Source: Acidobacteriota bacterium (lineage in GTDB: Bacteria; Acidobacteriota; Vicinamibacteria; Vicinamibacterales; UBA8438). From it: a stretch of 64,000 nucleotides of DNA. How positions within the stretch are numbered: the stretch's first letter is position 1; each line of letters opens with the position of its first letter. This document shows positions 42,276-55,393 of the stretch, in pieces. Location of the stretch: contig WTFV01000225.1 of assembly GCA_011523845.1 (NCBI GenBank), positions 8,747 to 72,746 on the forward strand. Reading direction: 5' to 3'. The notes beneath the pieces are model-generated. The model saw nothing but the letters and a program-made list of their open reading frames with translations. It was not told the origin of the DNA and ran no database searches. A program made the translations under genes and the position numbers.

Positions 42276-42671
42276 CTACGGCGTGATCGCCAATGGATGT
42301 CCAACGAGGCGACGATCCACGGTAAGCAGCCGCAAGCCTTCCTCCTGGGCCTGCGCGAGCAGCAACTCGTCGAACGGGTCGCGGTGCGGAACGGCGACCT
42401 CCAGGCTCCTGCACGCGTGCACCATCGTCATCGGCAGAAACGTAACGTCCTGCTGTTCGAGCGCGGCGACCACATCCTCCGGATCGAAGCGACTCTTGCG
42501 GACTCCGGACCCGTGCCGCGCCTGGAACTTCAGGCGCATCTCCCGGATCGACACGGCGCTCACGTAGATGCGCGCCGCGTGGTCATCGAGGAACCCGCGC
42601 TCCGCGTCCGTGAACAGACCGAGCGATTCCATCAGGTCGTAGAGGTAGGACGTGTCGAGCAGAACACGCAC
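42276..42671 (-). CDS. VapC PIN-domain toxin
   Basis: VLLDT, VSAVSIRE, HRDPFD..LLAQA, LTVD. Confidence 0.9.
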   Translation of the reverse strand: MRVLLDTSYLYDLMESLGLFTDAERGFLDDHAARIYVSAVSIREMRLKFQARHGSGVRKSRFDPEDVVAALEQQDVTFLPMTMVHACRSLEVAVPHRDPFDELLLAQAQEEGLRLLTVDRRLVGHPLAITP

Positions 42672-42677
42672 GAGCGC

Positions 42678-42944
42678 TCATCCGTCCTCCGGTTCGAGAC
42701 CGAGCACACGCCGGCTGAATGCCGGATCGTTGAACTCGTCCGGCCACCGCTCACCATCTCCTTCGATGCCGAGCCGCCGGCGCGCCTCCTCCAGCTTGTC
42801 GAAGTCGATGCCGCCTCGGCGGCGACAGCGGACCAGCTCCACGGCCGGGACGCCGTGCCTGGTGATTACCACGCGCTCGCCCTTCTCGGCGGCCGCGATG
42901 AGCTCCGACAATCGAGCCTTGGCTTCACGCACCGCGAGTTCCAT
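42678..42944 (-). CDS. Phd/YefM antitoxin
   Basis: VREAKARLSELI..AEKGERVVITRHGVP. Confidence 0.92.
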   Translation of the reverse strand: MELAVREAKARLSELIAAAEKGERVVITRHGVPAVELVRCRRRGGIDFDKLEEARRRLGIEGDGERWPDEFNDPAFSRRVLGLEPEDG

Positions 42945-43135
42945 GAACCGCCTCCTCAACCACCCGCCCGTCGATTCACCATACGGCAGGTTCGACCACA
43001 GACAAGACTACACCGTGACTACACCTTGCGTCGCCGTCTACAGGCGGCTGCCGCCCTGGTGAGCGCTGTCCTGCAGAGAGAGCCGGCGCGGGTACGGCCA
43101 GGACCTCGATAGCCGGGCTCCGCGTGCCGTAGCAG

Positions 43136-46905: not shown

Positions 46906-47015
46906 CTAGGAGCTTGCGCCGCAGAACGCAGCGAAGCAAAGGTTCTGTGGCGCAAGGTCATGGAGCGGGGGGATGGGCCGAAACGCCGAGCCAGCGAGGC
47001 GTTTCGGGGCGCTAC
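46906..47015 (+). mobile_element. family A element copy 3
   Basis: Highly similar to 11517-11627; begins with CTAG. Confidence 0.75.
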
Positions 47016-47032
47016 GAGGGAGGAGGCCATGC

Positions 47033-47287
47033 ATGGCGCTGGTCAAGAAGAGCATCACCATAACGGACCGTCAGGAGCAGTGGATCAGGGCGCAGGTCGC
47101 AAGCGGCGATTACGGCAGCGACAGCGAGTACTTCCGCACGCTGATCCGCCAGGACCAGGAACGAAACGCCACCTACCGGGCCTTGAAGAAGGCCATTCAG
47201 GAAGGTGTGGACAGCGGTGTCAGCGACAGGACGGTGAAGGAGATCTGGGCGGAGGCGGAGCGGCGCTACGAAGCCAGGCATGGCTGA
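47033..47287 (+). CDS. ParD-family antitoxin
   Basis: KKSITIT..WIRAQVASGDYGSDSEYFR..AIQEGVDSG. Confidence 0.9.
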   Translation: MALVKKSITITDRQEQWIRAQVASGDYGSDSEYFRTLIRQDQERNATYRALKKAIQEGVDSGVSDRTVKEIWAEAERRYEARHG

Positions 47288-47576
47288 CTTCCGCCTGTCG
47301 ACTCGCGCCGCGTCCGACCTTGGCGGCATCGCCCGTTACACCATCGAGACCTTCGGCATCGAGCAGGCGCGCCGGTACCGTGACGATCTGGAGGCCTGCT
47401 TCCGGACTCTGGCGGAAACGCCACGGCTGGGCAGGAGTGCGGAACGGCTTCGCCCCGGCCTGCGACGCTTCGAGCATCGCTCGCACACCGTGTTCTACAC
47501 GCAGGATGAAGACGGAATCCTGATCGTCCGTATCCTGCACGTCAGGATGGATGCCACGCGCCGCGTTGGCCCGTGA
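47280..47576 (+). CDS. ParE/RelE-family toxin
   Basis: FRLSTRAASDL..YTIETFG..QARRY, ILIVRILHVRMD. Confidence 0.92.
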   Translation: MADFRLSTRAASDLGGIARYTIETFGIEQARRYRDDLEACFRTLAETPRLGRSAERLRPGLRRFEHRSHTVFYTQDEDGILIVRILHVRMDATRRVGP

Positions 47577-49816
47577 CGCGCATGGAACCGACTACCACGA
47601 GGCCGCCGACCGAATCCCTGGACGCCTTGCTGCGCCCGGCGTCGGTAGCCATCATCGGCGCCTCGAACGACCCGACGCGCATCGGCGGGCGTCCGCTTCG
47701 ATACCTGCGGGAAGCCGGCTTCCCGGGACAGGTCTATCCCGTCAATCCGAAGCACCGGGAGGTGCAGGGACTCCCGGCGTTTCCGCACATATCCGGCGTG
47801 CCGGAAGCGGTCGATCTGGCGATCGTCGCGGTGCCTGCCCCGAGCGTCGTCGACACCGTCGAGGCGTGCGCGACCCGCGGCGTGCGGGTGGCGGTCATCT
47901 ACAGCGCCGGCTTCGCGGAGATGAGCGCCGAGGGTCGCCGGCTGCAGCGGCGGCTGAGTGACATCGCGGCGGAGACCGGCCTCCGCATCGTCGGGCCCAA
48001 CTGCCTCGGCGTCTACAACTCGGAGCTCGGCTTCTTCGCCACGTTCAGCACGACGCTGGAGGACGGCTTCCCCGCGCCGGGCGGCGTCGCGCTGGTCAGC
48101 CAGAGCGGCGCCTACGGCAGCCACCTGTCGCTGCTGGCCCGCAAGCGGAACATCGACGTCCGCTACTGGGTGACGACCGGCAACGAGGCGGACGTCTCGG
48201 TGCCGGAGGTGCTCGGGTGGCTGGCGGAGCAGGACGACGTGTCCGTGATCATGGCTCACGCCGAGGGCATCACGGACCGGGACGCGCTCGTGCGCGCCCT
48301 GGGCACGGCGCGCGCCCGCCGCAAGCCGGTCGTGTTCCAGAAAGTGGGAACCACCGAGGTGGGCGCGCAGGCGGCTCGCTCGCACACCGCCTCGCTCGCC
48401 GGCGCCGACCCCGTCTACGAGGCGGCGTTCCGGCAGTTCGGCGCCTACCGCGCACGCGATACGGACGAGATGCTGGACGTCGCCTACGCGGCCGGCTTCG
48501 GCGTCTTTCCGGAGAGCCCGCGCGTCGCGCTCGTTTCCATCTCGGGCGGCGTCGGCGTGCAGATGGCGGACGCGGCGGTCGGCTTCGGCCTCGACGTGGC
48601 GCCGCTGAGCGAGTCGGCGCAGAACCGGCTGAAGGCCGCCCTACCCTACGCCTCGCCCCGCAACCCGGTCGACATCACCGCGCAGGCGTTCAACCGGATC
48701 GACCTGATCGCCGACAACCTGGGGATCGTCTTCGAGGAGGAGCGACACGACGCGGTGGTCGCCTTCTTCACCTACGTGGCGGCCGCCGAAGGCATGGTCG
48801 AGCCCATCCGCCAGGCGATCCACGCCGCCCGCGAGCGGCGGCCCGGCTGCGCGCTGGTGCTGTCCATCGTCGCTCCGCCGGACGTCGTGCGTCAGTACGA
48901 GGCGGTCGGCTGCCCCGTGTTCGAGGATCCGACCCGCGCCGTGCGGTCCGTCGCGGCGCTGCACCGGTTCAGCCGGATCTTCGCAGAGAGTGGGGACGAA
49001 GTCCTATCGGAAGGCGTCGGCGGAACGGTGGGCGTTCTCGCCGCGGACGTTCCCACCGCGGATGCCTCCACCGTCGAGCCGCGCACCGGCAGAACGGCGA
49101 CTCCCCCGATCATCGCACCGCGCAGGAGGAACCTCCCCGACGGTCCCCTCTCGGAGCGGCAGGCGAAGCGCCTCCTCTCGGAAGCGGGCGTGCCGGTGGT
49201 CCGGGAGGAGCTCGCACGGACCGCCGACGAGACCGCGCGCATCAGCGCCGCTTTCGATGCGCCGGTGGCGGTCAAGCTGTGCGCGCCGGGAATCCTGCAC
49301 AAGACCGAAATCGGCGGTGTCGTGCTCGACGTGTCGAACGATGCGGAGGCCCGCAGCGCCTATGAGGCGATCACTTCCCGCGCCCGCGCGGCGGACCCGT
49401 CAGTTCGCATCGAGGGCGTGCTGGTGGCGCCGATGGTCACCGGCGGCGTCGAAACGATCCTCGGCGTCCGCTGCGACCCGACGTTCGGACCCGTCGTCAT
49501 GTTCGGTCTCGGCGGGACCCTCGTGGAGGTGATCGAGGACGTGAGCTTCCGCGTGGCGCCGTTCGGCGAAGCCGAGGCCCGGCGGATGATTGCAGAGACG
49601 CGCGCCGGCAAGATACTCCGCGGAACGCGCGGCAAGGGTCCGTACGACCTCTCCGCCTTGGCAACGACCCTGTCACGCCTGTCGGTCTTCGCGGCGGAGC
49701 ACGGCGACACCATCGAGAGTGCGGAGATCAACCCGTTCGTCGTGCTCCCGGAAGGTCGCGGCGCCGTCGCGCTCGACGCCGTGATCGTGACCCGCGCCCC
49801 GGAGATGCCGGCCTGA
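47573..49816 (+). CDS. acetate/acyl-CoA ligase (ADP-forming) family protein
   Basis: LLRPASVAIIGAS, GPNCLG, SQSG, SHTASLAG, NPVD, HKTEIGGV, EINP. Confidence 0.92.
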   Translation: MTRMEPTTTRPPTESLDALLRPASVAIIGASNDPTRIGGRPLRYLREAGFPGQVYPVNPKHREVQGLPAFPHISGVPEAVDLAIVAVPAPSVVDTVEACATRGVRVAVIYSAGFAEMSAEGRRLQRRLSDIAAETGLRIVGPNCLGVYNSELGFFATFSTTLEDGFPAPGGVALVSQSGAYGSHLSLLARKRNIDVRYWVTTGNEADVSVPEVLGWLAEQDDVSVIMAHAEGITDRDALVRALGTARARRKPVVFQKVGTTEVGAQAARSHTASLAGADPVYEAAFRQFGAYRARDTDEMLDVAYAAGFGVFPESPRVALVSISGGVGVQMADAAVGFGLDVAPLSESAQNRLKAALPYASPRNPVDITAQAFNRIDLIADNLGIVFEEERHDAVVAFFTYVAAAEGMVEPIRQAIHAARERRPGCALVLSIVAPPDVVRQYEAVGCPVFEDPTRAVRSVAALHRFSRIFAESGDEVLSEGVGGTVGVLAADVPTADASTVEPRTGRTATPPIIAPRRRNLPDGPLSERQAKRLLSEAGVPVVREELARTADETARISAAFDAPVAVKLCAPGILHKTEIGGVVLDVSNDAEARSAYEAITSRARAADPSVRIEGVLVAPMVTGGVETILGVRCDPTFGPVVMFGLGGTLVEVIEDVSFRVAPFGEAEARRMIAETRAGKILRGTRGKGPYDLSALATTLSRLSVFAAEHGDTIESAEINPFVVLPEGRGAVALDAVIVTRAPEMPA

Positions 49817-49855: not shown

Positions 49856-51217
49856 GTGAGTGGTACGTCGAGTTCGCCATATACGCCGCCTGACGATCTC
49901 TGGGAGGTCAACCGCTCGTTGCAGATCGATGAGCCTCTCGACGGATCGAACGATCCCCGCTGGGTCGACACGGGAGAGGCGCGAGGCGAGTACAGCCTTC
50001 GCTCCCTCTATCGAGCGCTCGGCGTGGAGGACGCGGAGAGCCCTTCCACGCGGCGGCTCAGGACGCCGCCTGACCGCGGCTACTACCTGTTCTGCGGGCA
50101 CCGCGGCTGCGGCAAGAGCACCGAGCTGCGACGTATCCGGAACGACCTGCACGCGCCGGACGTCTACTACGTCGCCTTTGCGGATGCAGCCCGCGACCTC
50201 GACCCCAACAACCTGCGCTACCAGGACGTCCTGCTGCACCTGGCCGCAACGCTGACCAGGCGGCTCGAAGACGACGGGGTCGCCATCGACGACGTGCACC
50301 TCGAGCGGCTCCGAAGCTGGTTCGATCAGCGGGTGGAGGAGCAGGCGGACATCGAGGAATTGACACGGCAGGTCAAGGCCGGCGCGCAGGTTGCCGCAGG
50401 GCTCCCCTATCTCGGGAAACTCCTGGCCGCGATCAGCACCGCCTTCAAGACGAACGCCACCCACAAGGAAGTGCTGCGGCGCACGTTGAAGAACTACTTC
50501 AGTGACTTCGCGGAAGCGTTCAATCATCTCATCGCGGCGGCCGAGGACGCCCTGCGCGAGGCGGACAGGGGCAGTCGGATCCTCTTCATGATCGACGGCA
50601 CGGATCAGCTCAGCGAAGAGGATGCACATGCGTTCTTCATCACCGACGTTCATCAGCTTCAACAGGTGCGAGCACTGTTCCTCTACTGCGCGCCCATCCA
50701 CCTGATCTACGAAGCCGCGGCCATTCAGCAGAACTTCGGCGTGTTCCGACTGCCCATGCTCAAGACCCAGAACGAAAGCGATGCCGCCAACGAGGCCGGG
50801 CGCCGCGCGATGCAGGATCTGCTCTACCGGCGCGCCGCACCCGAACTATTCGACGACGGCGTAGCCGACTATCTGATCGACCACAGCGGAGGACACCCGC
50901 GCGACCTGCTGCGGTTGTTGCAGCAGGCGTTCCAGTACGCCGAGCACGATCGGTTCGACGATGCCGCCGCGCAACGCGCCGTACGCGAAACGGCCTCCAT
51001 GTTCCGACGTATCCTGGAGCCCGAGGACTACCGGCTTCTGGCCGAGATCGACTCGAGCGCGGAGCAACCTCCCAGCACCGAGCGCACCCGCCACCTGCTC
51101 TACAACCTCGCGCTGCTGGAGTACAACGACTACTTCTGGCGCAGTCATCCCGCTATCAGGACGACGGATGCCTACCGCAACGCAAGGCGCCGGATCGATG
51201 GGACCGGCAACGGATAG
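49856..51217 (+). CDS. P-loop ATPase (STAND/KAP/AAA_16-like)
   Basis: GHRGCGKSTEL, FMIDGTD, SGGHPRDLLRL, winged-helix-like end LLYNLALLEYN..HP. Confidence 0.88.
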   Translation: MSGTSSSPYTPPDDLWEVNRSLQIDEPLDGSNDPRWVDTGEARGEYSLRSLYRALGVEDAESPSTRRLRTPPDRGYYLFCGHRGCGKSTELRRIRNDLHAPDVYYVAFADAARDLDPNNLRYQDVLLHLAATLTRRLEDDGVAIDDVHLERLRSWFDQRVEEQADIEELTRQVKAGAQVAAGLPYLGKLLAAISTAFKTNATHKEVLRRTLKNYFSDFAEAFNHLIAAAEDALREADRGSRILFMIDGTDQLSEEDAHAFFITDVHQLQQVRALFLYCAPIHLIYEAAAIQQNFGVFRLPMLKTQNESDAANEAGRRAMQDLLYRRAAPELFDDGVADYLIDHSGGHPRDLLRLLQQAFQYAEHDRFDDAAAQRAVRETASMFRRILEPEDYRLLAEIDSSAEQPPSTERTRHLLYNLALLEYNDYFWRSHPAIRTTDAYRNARRRIDGTGNG

Positions 51218-52706
51218 CCCGCTCCCGCCCTGGACCCTGCGCTCGGAGCACTCCGGGACCTTCCTGCGCCTTCAGCGCCTGCTGAACGGTCGAGCATCGT
51301 TCACGCTGTGCTTCCTGACCTTTTCGGACAGCGTGTATCGCGACGAAGTGGCCGACTTTCTGGGAGGACGGCTGAAGGCGCTCGTCCGCGTGGCGATCGA
51401 GCCGGAGGAGCGAATCGGTACGGAGGTTCTGTTCGACCGGCTGAGTGCGGATGCAGACAGCGGGCCTGCCCAGGTCATGGACCTGGAGTCCTGGCCAGAC
51501 GGATTCGACAACCTGTTGGGTCGCCTCAACCAGCGCCGAGAGGCGCTCGCCGAGCGTTGCCCGCGCCCACTGCTGGTCTGGGTGCTGTCCAGCAACCTGA
51601 AGAAGGTCGCAACGCGCGCCGCGGACCTTTGGGCCTGGCGTTCCGGGGTGTTCGATTTCACCCTGCCGCTCACGGGCGTCCGGACCGACCGGCATCAAAC
51701 TCACCTCGGCGGTCCGGCAATGTTCACACCCGATCGCCAGGGGCGTGTCGACAGATTGCAGAAGTACCTGGCGAAACACTCTCCTTCAAGCCCGGCCGAC
51801 GTCGACCTGCTGCTCGATCTCGGGGATCTGCAGAGGTCGCTCGGAAACGTGGCGGAAGCAGAATCCGCTTATTCGCGCGCGTTGAAAACGGTCGCAAGGC
51901 TGGACGATCCGAGACGACGCGCCATCACGTACGGCAGAATCGCCGACATCCGGCAGGAGCGCGGGCAACTCGACGAAGCCCTGCGTATACTGACCGAAGA
52001 ACAACTGCCCGTCTTCGAGAAACTCGGCGACGCTCGTCAGCAGGCCATCACGCAGGCCAGAATCGCCGATGTTCTGCAGGTCCGCGGCCAACTCGACGAA
52101 GCCCTGCGCATCCGAACCGAAGAACAACTGCCCGTCTTCGAGAGACTCGGCGACATCCGCTCCCGCGCCATCACCCAGAGCAGAATCGCCGACATCCTGC
52201 AGGCACGCGGGCAACTCGACGAAGCCCTGCGCATACTGACCGAAGAACAATTACCCGTCTTCGAACAGCTCGGTGACGCCCGCTCGCAAGCCATCACACA
52301 AGGGCAAATCGCCGACATCCTGCAGACACGCGGGCAACTCGACGAAGCCCTGCGGCTCCGAACCGAAGAACAACTGCCCGTCTTCGAGAAACTCGGCGAC
52401 ATCCGCTCCCGCGCCATCGCCCAGGGCGAAATCGCCGACATCCTCCGGACACGCGGGCAACTCGACGAAGCCCTGCGCATACTGACCGAAGAGCAACTGC
52501 CCGTCTTCGAGAAACTCGGCGACGTCCACGCCCTCGCCATCACGCAGGGCAGAATCGCCGGGATCATGCAAGAGCGCGGGCAACTGGACGATGCCCTCCG
52601 AATCTATGAACAGCAGGTGCTGCCCACCTTCGAGGCACTGAATCTCCCCGTGGAGATCGACCGCGTCCGAGCACGTATTGCGGCACTGCGGGCGAGCCTC
52701 GGATGA
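51198..52706 (+). CDS. TPR-repeat protein with N-terminal degenerate NTPase-like domain
   Basis: LNQRRE..PLLVW..A.DLWAWRSGVFDF followed by six 41-aa repeats; overlaps the ATPase. Confidence 0.88.
   Translation: MGPATDSPLPPWTLRSEHSGTFLRLQRLLNGRASFTLCFLTFSDSVYRDEVADFLGGRLKALVRVAIEPEERIGTEVLFDRLSADADSGPAQVMDLESWPDGFDNLLGRLNQRREALAERCPRPLLVWVLSSNLKKVATRAADLWAWRSGVFDFTLPLTGVRTDRHQTHLGGPAMFTPDRQGRVDRLQKYLAKHSPSSPADVDLLLDLGDLQRSLGNVAEAESAYSRALKTVARLDDPRRRAITYGRIADIRQERGQLDEALRILTEEQLPVFEKLGDARQQAITQARIADVLQVRGQLDEALRIRTEEQLPVFERLGDIRSRAITQSRIADILQARGQLDEALRILTEEQLPVFEQLGDARSQAITQGQIADILQTRGQLDEALRLRTEEQLPVFEKLGDIRSRAIAQGEIADILRTRGQLDEALRILTEEQLPVFEKLGDVHALAITQGRIAGIMQERGQLDDALRIYEQQVLPTFEALNLPVEIDRVRARIAALRASLG
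51921..52655 (+). repeat. intragenic 123-bp tandem repeats (six, last diverged)
   Basis: GCCATCACG at 51921 and 52044; GGGCAACTCGACGAAGCCCTGCG recurs with 123-bp period. Confidence 0.92.
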
Positions 52707-52832: not shown

Positions 52833-54968
<2,136 letters not shown>

Positions 54969-55079
54969 CTTGGATGTGCCTCTGGGAACGGATTCCTGCA
55001 TTCACGGTCCGACCGTGGACGGACCGGTTTCTCACCCTCTTGTACTGTTTCCGGAGCATACTCGCGGTTCGGGGTGCCG

Positions 55080-55139: not shown

Positions 55140-55393
55140 CGGACCGCACGTCCGAGGCGAATTCCCCGCTGCCACGGACCGGCGGCGCACCCGGTCCGGC
55201 ACCGGGAGACGCCGGACCGCGCGTCCGAGGCGAATTCCCCGCTGCCACGGACCGGCGGCACGTCCGGCCCGGCACCGGGAGACGCCGGCCGCGCGTCCGA
55301 GGCGAATTCCCCGCCGCCACGGACCGGCAGCACGTCCGGTCCGGCACCGGGGGACGCCGGACCGCACGTCCGAGGCGAATTCCCCGCTGCCAC
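55140..55393. repeat. tandem ~73-bp repeats (3.5 copies)
   Basis: CGTCCGAGGCGAATTCCCCG(C/T)GCCAC-type core appears four times with similar linkers. Confidence 0.9.

Follow-up and report, generated by a model that had tools for sequence, protein, structure and literature searches.

Two-gene operons that couple an active STAND NTPase to an eroded partner have been predicted computationally for the nSTAND2 family; they are mobile, and the two proteins are proposed to form a hetero-oligomer (Kaur, Iyer, Burroughs, Aravind 2021, eLife, PMC8195603). In the published description both proteins belong to the same STAND family, the eroded module is ~320 aa long with helical parts, and the eroded partner carries GT4 or HEPN (PMC8195603). 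In the BREX systems the Orc/Cdc6-type ATPase BrxC is accompanied by BrxB, an inactive STAND-like protein whose described fold is a compact alpha/beta/alpha domain of five strands with neither Walker motifs nor a helical bundle (PMC12839542), and TPR/caspase-like conflict proteins are described in PMC7159879. Here we describe two overlapping genes, A and B, at positions 49,856 to 52,706 of a 64,000-nucleotide stretch of contig WTFV01000225.1 from an Acidobacteriota bacterium; the whole stretch is referred to below as the window. Gene A encodes a P-loop ATPase and gene B an N-terminal domain (N-domain) without a Walker A motif followed by an array of tetratricopeptide repeats (TPRs), and we conclude that the pair is a real, intact and unnamed two-gene cassette of STAND/NLR-like kind. 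The nSTAND2 operon, as printed in the description cited above, is the closest to it. A prior reading of the letters without database searches (the sequence-only reading) had matched the pair to no system that it could name, and PADLOC likewise gives nothing beyond generic TPR; no name or system with this architecture was found in the libraries and literature searched, the neighbourhood tables of PMC8195603 lying outside that search. The features of the pair are as follows.

49856..51217, + strand: gene A, a predicted Orc/Cdc6-STAND-like AAA+ P-loop ATPase of 453 aa, with nucleotide-binding domain, helical lid and C-terminal helical/winged-helix-like part.
50096..50119, + strand: Walker A motif GHRGCGKS of A (aa 81-88), the sole regex match in A.
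50582..50605, + strand: Walker B region LFMIDGTD of A (aa 243-250), of the form hhhhDGxD, located from invariant residues and a motif scan.
51198..51217, + strand: overlap of the 3' end of A and the likely start of B, 20 nt (50 nt if B begins at the ATG at 51168).
51198..52706, + strand: gene B, 502 aa, unnamed N-domain plus TPR array, in a different frame from A.
51198..51731, + strand: N-domain of B (aa 1-~178), alpha/beta with five predicted strands and no P-loop, the constant module accompanying the A ATPase.
51918..52655, + strand: six tandem 123-bp (41-aa) TPR units, of which units 1-5 are 80-86% identical in DNA and unit 6 is diverged.

The architecture given in the sequence-only reading is largely right. 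Its first claim, an intact P-loop ATPase that overlaps a second gene, is borne out by the coordinates and by the conservation of A. In an alignment of 38 homologues the Walker A residues G81, H82, G84, G86, K87, S88 and T89 and the Walker B residues L243, F244, D247, G248 and D250 are invariant, and the SGGHPR and C-terminal LLEYND..W.SHP blocks are invariant or nearly so; among the 120 homologues listed, GxxxxGK[ST] is present in 119 and hhhhDG[TS]D in 114. The DGxD, GGHP and SHP elements may be read as resembling the 'DGxDE' motif of NACHT, the 'GLPL' motif of NB-ARC and the MHD motif. In Pfam only AAA_22 exceeds its cut-off, and barely so (27.9 bits vs 27). The curated STAND models fall below threshold (NACHT, 18.8 bits vs 26.7, with its weak match spanning aa 237-265; nSTAND_NTPase5, 17.3 vs 34), as do AAA_16 (24.3 bits vs 32.6), ORC-CDC6-like and NPHP3_N, and NCBIfam gives a sub-threshold match to the Sll1717 family. 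A search of PDB sequences with A returned no match under E 0.03. The AlphaFold2 (AF2) model of A, built with the 38 homologues, is confident (pLDDT 84.5, pTM 0.86), and Foldseek places Cdc6/Orc, RdrA, TnsC, BrxC and RFC at its top ranks (E 7e-6 to 1e-4), with the solved BrxC-BrxB complex (PDB 9zll) also among the matches; Orc/Cdc6, Paby2304 and TnsC score equal to or above STANDs. Because of these domain matches, the confident model and the Foldseek ranking, we place A as a predicted AAA+ switch of the Orc/Cdc6-STAND neighbourhood, with nucleotide-binding domain, lid and C-terminal helical module. No repeats, effector or any further domain are seen in the A polypeptide by Pfam or in the model.

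Both candidate start codons of B (ATG 51198 and ATG 51168) have a weak AGG-type motif upstream; the database call of 512 aa corresponds to 51168, and the cable-bacterium homologues of B, which begin 4 nt past the stop of A, favour 51198. The N-domain had been said to lack a Walker A motif, and neither [AG]xxxxGK[ST] nor a GK dipeptide is found by regex anywhere in B, the Walker A pattern occurring in one of 119 B homologues. Residues 1-~178 have no match in Pfam, NCBIfam or PADLOC, a Pfam scan of 31 diverse N-domain members gives nothing below E 0.19, and a profile search of PDB sequences gives nothing below E 0.58. The ESM Atlas returns unnamed clusters only, commonest in Cyanobacteriota (scores 0.89-0.92), with no usable match when the search is limited to named clusters. 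Across the 31 diverse sequences N111, R114, D143 and F154 are invariant, L25, R48, L110, W128, A141 and W145 are near-invariant, and the motifs LNxxRE, FWL and DxWxW are conserved.

The N-domain had also been proposed to be an inactive NTPase. The AF2 model of whole B has low confidence over the N-domain (pLDDT 26-68, vs 83-98 in the TPR part), and a fold search with it was dominated by TPR proteins. The predicted order in this low-confidence model is beta-alpha-beta-alpha-beta-alpha-beta-alpha-beta, and strand 1, the "hhhhxLE" strand and the "hhFWL" strand are spaced as in a P-loop-less AAA+-type core. With permissive hhalign settings the N-domain strands fall on the Walker B and sensor-1 strands of A, at a Prob of 1.1% only, which is a hint and not evidence; the N-domain profile aligned to A gives Prob 1.1-1.2%. 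An inactive NTPase is plausible from predicted strand and helix order and from motif spacing, but the model behind that order is of low confidence and the profile comparison with A gives next to no similarity.

Six 41-aa (123-bp) repeats had been counted in B, and six are found; Tandem Repeats Finder delimits them at 51920-52597 (period 123, 5.5 copies, 81% matches, score 881). Their description as nearly identical in DNA is too strong, since pairwise identity is only 80-86% among units 1-5 and drops to 59-65% between unit 6 and the rest. Variation does cluster at few positions, with 15 of the 41 amino-acid positions varying in units 1-5, 26 constant and several codons the same in all five. 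The alternating higher-order pattern reported earlier is present as a weak two-unit periodicity, DNA identity being 85% (units 1-3), 86% (2-4) and 85% (3-5) vs 80-81% for 1-2, 2-3 and 3-4; the adjacent pair 4-5 is also at 85%. Residues ~180-502 match TPR models above their cut-offs and fold as an alpha-solenoid (Pfam TPR_12, 88.4 bits vs 30.1; TPR_MalT, 49.2 vs 45; aa 1-180 unmatched), and by fold search they resemble MalT domain III and a Podospora nearly-identical-repeat protein. PADLOC matches B with a generic 'TPR' model (1.6e-17) and PDC-S39 (1.6e-5) only.

Repeat number varies widely in the family. The 120 B proteins compared have between 0 and 10 detected units, most often 6, close relatives are 420, 461, 502 and 543 aa long and thus differ in 41-aa steps, and one relative in an Acidobacteria metagenome-assembled genome (MAG) has 11 units. 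In the 97 B proteins with at least 3 units the mean unit identity is at least 0.70 in 43, and in 25 some pair of units reaches 0.90; the window B (mean 0.71) lies near the family median of 0.68. A genome of the same genus (G004) has identical units in an array broken by an assembly gap. Across the family, within-protein variation is highest at positions 5, 7, 13, 14, 29 and 39, which overlap the variable positions of the window array.

That the two genes form a unit, as the sequence-only reading held, is upheld by conservation of their pairing across phyla. The open reading frame (ORF) directly downstream of an A homologue matches the N-domain profile, on the same strand, in 61 of 67 loci (60 of 80 metagenome loci and 7 of 12 genome loci, after short or truncated ones were dropped by eye beforehand); of the remaining six, four have no usable downstream ORF and two have an unmatched one. 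The pairing persists where A is only 23-30% identical. There are at least 848 database relatives of A, the 120 best being 59-91% identical, and 508 representative clusters match the N-domain at E<=1e-3, the match beginning within the first 30 residues in 143 of the 150 best-listed clusters. Named relatives include Acidobacteriota (Vicinamibacterales MAGs), Spirochaetia, cable bacteria, Accumulibacter, Saprospiraceae and Leucothrix.

What follows the N-domain varies: 3-11 or more TPR units, TPR plus CHAT, Lcl_C, or a second NTPase with WD40. CHAT forms the C-terminus of two B homologues, 1252 and 1285 aa long (E 2e-39 and 4e-51), and Lcl_C that of one other. On the conjugative Acaryochloris marina plasmid pREB2 a distant A homologue overlaps by 4 nt a partner of 1830 aa (L115:7224-12716), which has the N-domain at residues 1-150 (E 2e-27), a second Walker A motif (GPSGVGKS) at residue 533 and, per the record annotation, WD repeats; the neighbours of this pair are a NACHT protein, an integrase, HicAB and RelE/ParE. 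More generally, NACHT, NB-ARC, TIR, HicAB and RelE genes adjoin distant pairs on two of the three cyanobacterial plasmids inspected. No third conserved gene recurs beside the pair across the family loci; RsmB-like methyltransferases abut B in two of them.

In the cable bacteria a protein of ~460 aa with a C-terminal trypsin-like peptidase is encoded downstream of B on the same strand, ~450 nt away in one locus (L016:9258-10637) and ~1 kb away in another (L017:5838-7208). It could be a separately encoded effector, and has been seen in those related genomes only.

Compared with STAND/NLR proteins, A has an intact P-loop NTPase with conserved Walker A and Walker B, and as in STAND/NLR proteins with TPR sensors (bacterial Avs, MalT, NB-ARC-TPR proteins, fungal TPR NLRs) the TPR array is internally highly identical in many family members. 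The differences are that switch and sensor are separate polypeptides here, that in B the sensor part is preceded by an additional domain of ~175 aa which belongs to no known family, and that the window copy has no effector domain. The cassette would work like a STAND/NLR receptor but lacks two of the membership features tested, namely a match to a curated model and the presence of repeats or an effector in the same polypeptide. Relative to the high-internal-conservation (HIC) repeats of fungal NLRs, the window array has 80-86% DNA identity, is stable and has a ratio of nonsynonymous to synonymous substitution (dN/dS) of 0.32; other family members have identical units and arrays of 3 to 11 or more.

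The likeness to the nSTAND2 operon lies in a mobile operon of two genes, in the combination of one active STAND-type NTPase with a partner that lacks a Walker A motif and bears a variable module, and in the proposed hetero-oligomer. By comparison with the published description, however, the N-domain of B is shorter (~175 aa) and has no detectable similarity to A (Prob 1.1-1.2%, as above), and B carries TPRs, not GT4 or HEPN. BrxC-BrxB of BREX is a structural parallel, an Orc/Cdc6-type ATPase with a compact Walker-less partner, and the N-domain of B may resemble the BrxB fold as described, to judge by its predicted strand and helix order, but no PglZ, PglX/methyltransferase or other BREX genes are seen by Pfam among the 17 neighbouring window genes, and no BrxB model in PADLOC or Pfam matched B. 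A known TPR-CHAT protein is Csx29 of type III-E CRISPR. The distant B homologues composed of N-domain, TPR and CHAT resemble such proteins; the window B has no CHAT, and neither the A ATPase nor the N-domain is part of known TPR-CHAT systems.

We propose that A and B together make up a split sensor-switch, NLR/STAND-like and of immune or conflict type (anti-phage or anti-mobile-element), here effector-less, a proposal that we consider evenly poised between right and wrong. In its mechanism the N-domain of B would dock on A, as BrxB accompanies BrxC in BREX, and the TPR groove would bind a foreign or stress-derived protein or peptide; ligand binding would then release or trigger nucleotide-dependent oligomerisation of A. 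In relatives the output would be activation of the fused CHAT protease, and for an effector-less copy it might be ligand sequestration, ATP consumption, or activation of a factor from another locus. More tentatively, and at somewhat under an even chance, A and the ~175-aa N-domain may constitute a widespread unnamed 'switch + adaptor' cassette for interchangeable sensor and effector bodies, from TPR arrays, TPR-CHAT and Lcl_C up to whole STAND-WD40 receptors; these would be split NLR-like immune receptors whose switch, like BrxC with BrxB, acts in trans via a docking domain that is a degenerate P-loop-like fold, with the TPR-only forms working by ligand capture or effector recruitment.

The genomic position of the pair bears on this proposal. 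The genes that border it or lie upstream are listed here.

42276-43007: Phd/PIN pair, ~7 kb upstream of the A+B pair.
46973-47576: ParD/ParE pair, directly upstream of the acetyl-CoA-synthetase-type gene.
47573..49816, + strand: ADP-forming acetyl-CoA-synthetase-type gene (Pfam ATP-grasp_5, Succ_CoA_lig, CoA_binding_2), the left border, outside the system.
52833..55001, - strand: radical-SAM gene with HMPTM-type zinc ribbon (Pfam Radical_SAM, Zn_ribbon_HMPTM), the right border, outside the system.

The pair had been described as sitting among housekeeping genes, which holds for the two immediate flanks but not for the ParD/ParE and Phd/PIN pairs upstream; the position of ParDE is kept in several same-genus genomes. 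The low GC content noted earlier is also seen: GC is 64.6% in A and 63.9% in B, the window as a whole having 69.6% and the upstream gene 71.3%, and the difference is especially evident at third codon positions (GC3; 0.82 and 0.75 vs 0.90 and 0.97 in the flanking genes). A matched in five of 41 related genomes searched, all five of one genus. We compared the slot between the acetyl-CoA-synthetase-type and radical-SAM genes in 15 genomes of this genus. The pair is present in G000, G010 (six units) and G004 (ten or more units). G008 has internal deletions in both genes, G005 has fragments of A only, G007 has no A and has B split over two frames, and G001 has only the last ~90 codons of B. The border genes abut in G011, G012 and G013, G014 has a 2.1-kb insert (L113:94-2200) with long ORFs and no Pfam match, and the slot is rearranged in G003 and G009. 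In G002 and G006 it is occupied by Schlafen-group-3-type helicases of 639-667 aa with full-length PADLOC matches to PDC-S41 (L106:4068-5987, - strand, E 3e-121; L108:4240-6243, - strand, E 1e-119). With this helicase in the same slot of two genomes the slot behaves as a variable hotspot; the pair thus represents accessory genes in such a hotspot, one alternative occupant of which is a catalogued defence candidate.

Several observations weigh against an immune role, and many of them are shared with a rival explanation in which the pair is a non-immune cellular module, that is, an ATP-dependent scaffold, chaperone or regulator in which A is the nucleotide switch and an endogenous client is bound by the TPR array, comparable to regulators of the MalT/AfsR and Rap/NprR types; we regard this as possible, if on the unlikely side. 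Avs/AVAST and the other catalogued systems offer no match, as no PADLOC-DB v2.0.0 model fits the pair beyond generic TPR, and for A the same library yields nothing meaningful (best ZorC, E 0.014, and mad8, E 0.02). The window copy and its close relatives have no effector by Pfam and PADLOC, as the sequence-only reading had observed of the window copy, and the absence in the window copy suits a cellular module. Immediate neighbours outside the genus are mostly metabolic or housekeeping genes, and A itself starts 39 nt past a metabolic gene on the same strand. The flanks of 20 other loci show no enrichment of defence genes of the kind that the sequence-only reading would have looked for: in a scan of 146 of the 190 ORFs listed there, eight have PADLOC matches at E<=1e-8, among them several generic ones ('mad2' matches that are RsmB/MraW methyltransferases, and one Ser/Thr-kinase-type PD-T4-6). 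No homologue was found in viral contigs or phage records.

The relation of the two proteins bears on both sides. A search of longer proteins found no fused A-B protein, a blank there being weak evidence, and the N-domain is no more than a putative pseudo-ATPase. On the favourable side, co-folding of A with B(1-205) lends weak support to an interface: the ipSAE is 0.49 (runs of 0.60, 0.42 and 0.49) vs 0.00 for the best of three controls, the runs share at least 90% of contacts, and the partner pLDDT is at least 73. Of 157 solved complexes 116 pass the ipSAE mark in use, as do 2 of 215 mismatched pairs; at values up to 0.60 it is passed by only 18 of the 157 together with both passing mismatches. 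Interest in the pair is also tempered by its function being predicted only and by this copy being effector-less.

A 1034-aa metagenome protein (P0243) is 57% identical to A over its first ~290 residues and continues with ~740 unrelated residues of helical-repeat look without TPRs; a natural fusion and a chimeric assembly are both possible.

The behaviour of the array likewise runs counter to the proposal and is in keeping with a cellular module. The relative G010, with 84% protein identity, also has six units, and window units are 86-93% identical to those of G010 on the diagonal and 58-87% off it (78-87% among units 1-5), with window unit 2 tying with G010 unit 4 at 87%. The window units are positional orthologues of the G010 units, in the same number, and the array is stable in this lineage. 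Positive selection is not seen, dN/dS being 0.32 when units are compared with one another and 0.26 for orthologous variable positions. The idea that the repeats shuffle by recombination accordingly fails in this lineage. Synteny with a fixed repeat number, which the sequence-only reading had named as telling against its own proposal, is seen with this one relative, and unit number varies family-wide. Against G010 the dN and dS values are 0.117/0.563 in the N-domain and 0.055/0.330 in the repeats, giving a dN/dS of 0.17-0.21; both genes are under purifying selection, as a cellular module would also be, and the window copy is probably functional.

Against a cellular module stand the patchy distribution of the pair (the five matches in 41 relatives, and retention in three of the 15 same-genus genomes), its repeated decay and the defence-candidate helicase in the slot of two genomes, the CHAT and WD40/NTPase partners and NB-ARC/TIR neighbours of its relatives, and its GC3 below that of the flanking genes; for a regulator it also has no DNA-binding output domain that we could identify. 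The split sensor-switch is favoured by the conserved pairing, the exchangeable output end, the plasmid context of distant relatives, the variable slot, the repeat dynamics of the family, purifying selection and, weakly, the predicted complex.

A transcription-type switch, in which the winged-helix-like part of A would bind DNA as in Orc/Cdc6 or TnsC, B would tune it and the regulated genes would be neighbours such as the acetyl-CoA synthetase operon, is improbable. The co-orientation of A with the upstream gene across the 39-nt gap agrees with it, but neighbours differ at nearly every locus outside the genus, so the pair has no conserved regulated target; both border genes are also kept in same-genus genomes that lack the pair, and the Pfam scan detected no helix-turn-helix family in A. 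That the pair is a decaying relic without current function in this genome is very improbable: four same-genus genomes do have broken or partial copies in the same slot, but in the window both frames are open and full-length, every conserved motif is present, and the dN/dS against G010 is as given above.

Should A and B prove to be a split sensor-switch, bacterial sensing of NLR/STAND type would not be limited to single giant polypeptides, and a small conserved ATPase might serve many sensor proteins via one docking domain. The N-domain, which no Pfam family covers, could be followed as a simple genetic handle to further sensors and effectors, and the pair would offer a tractable two-protein model for the coupling between nucleotide switch and repeat sensor. 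The slot in this Vicinamibacterales-like genus, holding either the pair or a defence-candidate helicase, makes a useful natural comparison in a phylum about whose phage defence very little is known.

Four sponge-metagenome runs of one study, which may include the source sample, contain 73-95% of the sequence words of the stretch; no RNA run is among the matches listed. Their contigs all end within the array (52003-52523), with no joints, and since rare variants are invisible in contigs they are uninformative on repeat-number variation. A contig in one of the runs has 65 differences over 2020 bases from window positions 49856-51875, so a second strain with the A+B pair is present.

A scan for promoters and terminators gave no promoter-like sites and one terminator-like site, in B, which is no more than in shuffled sequences. 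The acetyl-CoA-synthetase-type gene is 79-87% identical in same-genus genomes. The radical-SAM gene is unusually conserved, at 92-99% identity in ten same-genus genomes and 94-96% in four more (tblastn), and its GC3 of 0.97 is far above that of its neighbours. Between it and the next genes lies a 73-bp tandem repeat at 55140-55393, with 3.5 copies and 92% matches.

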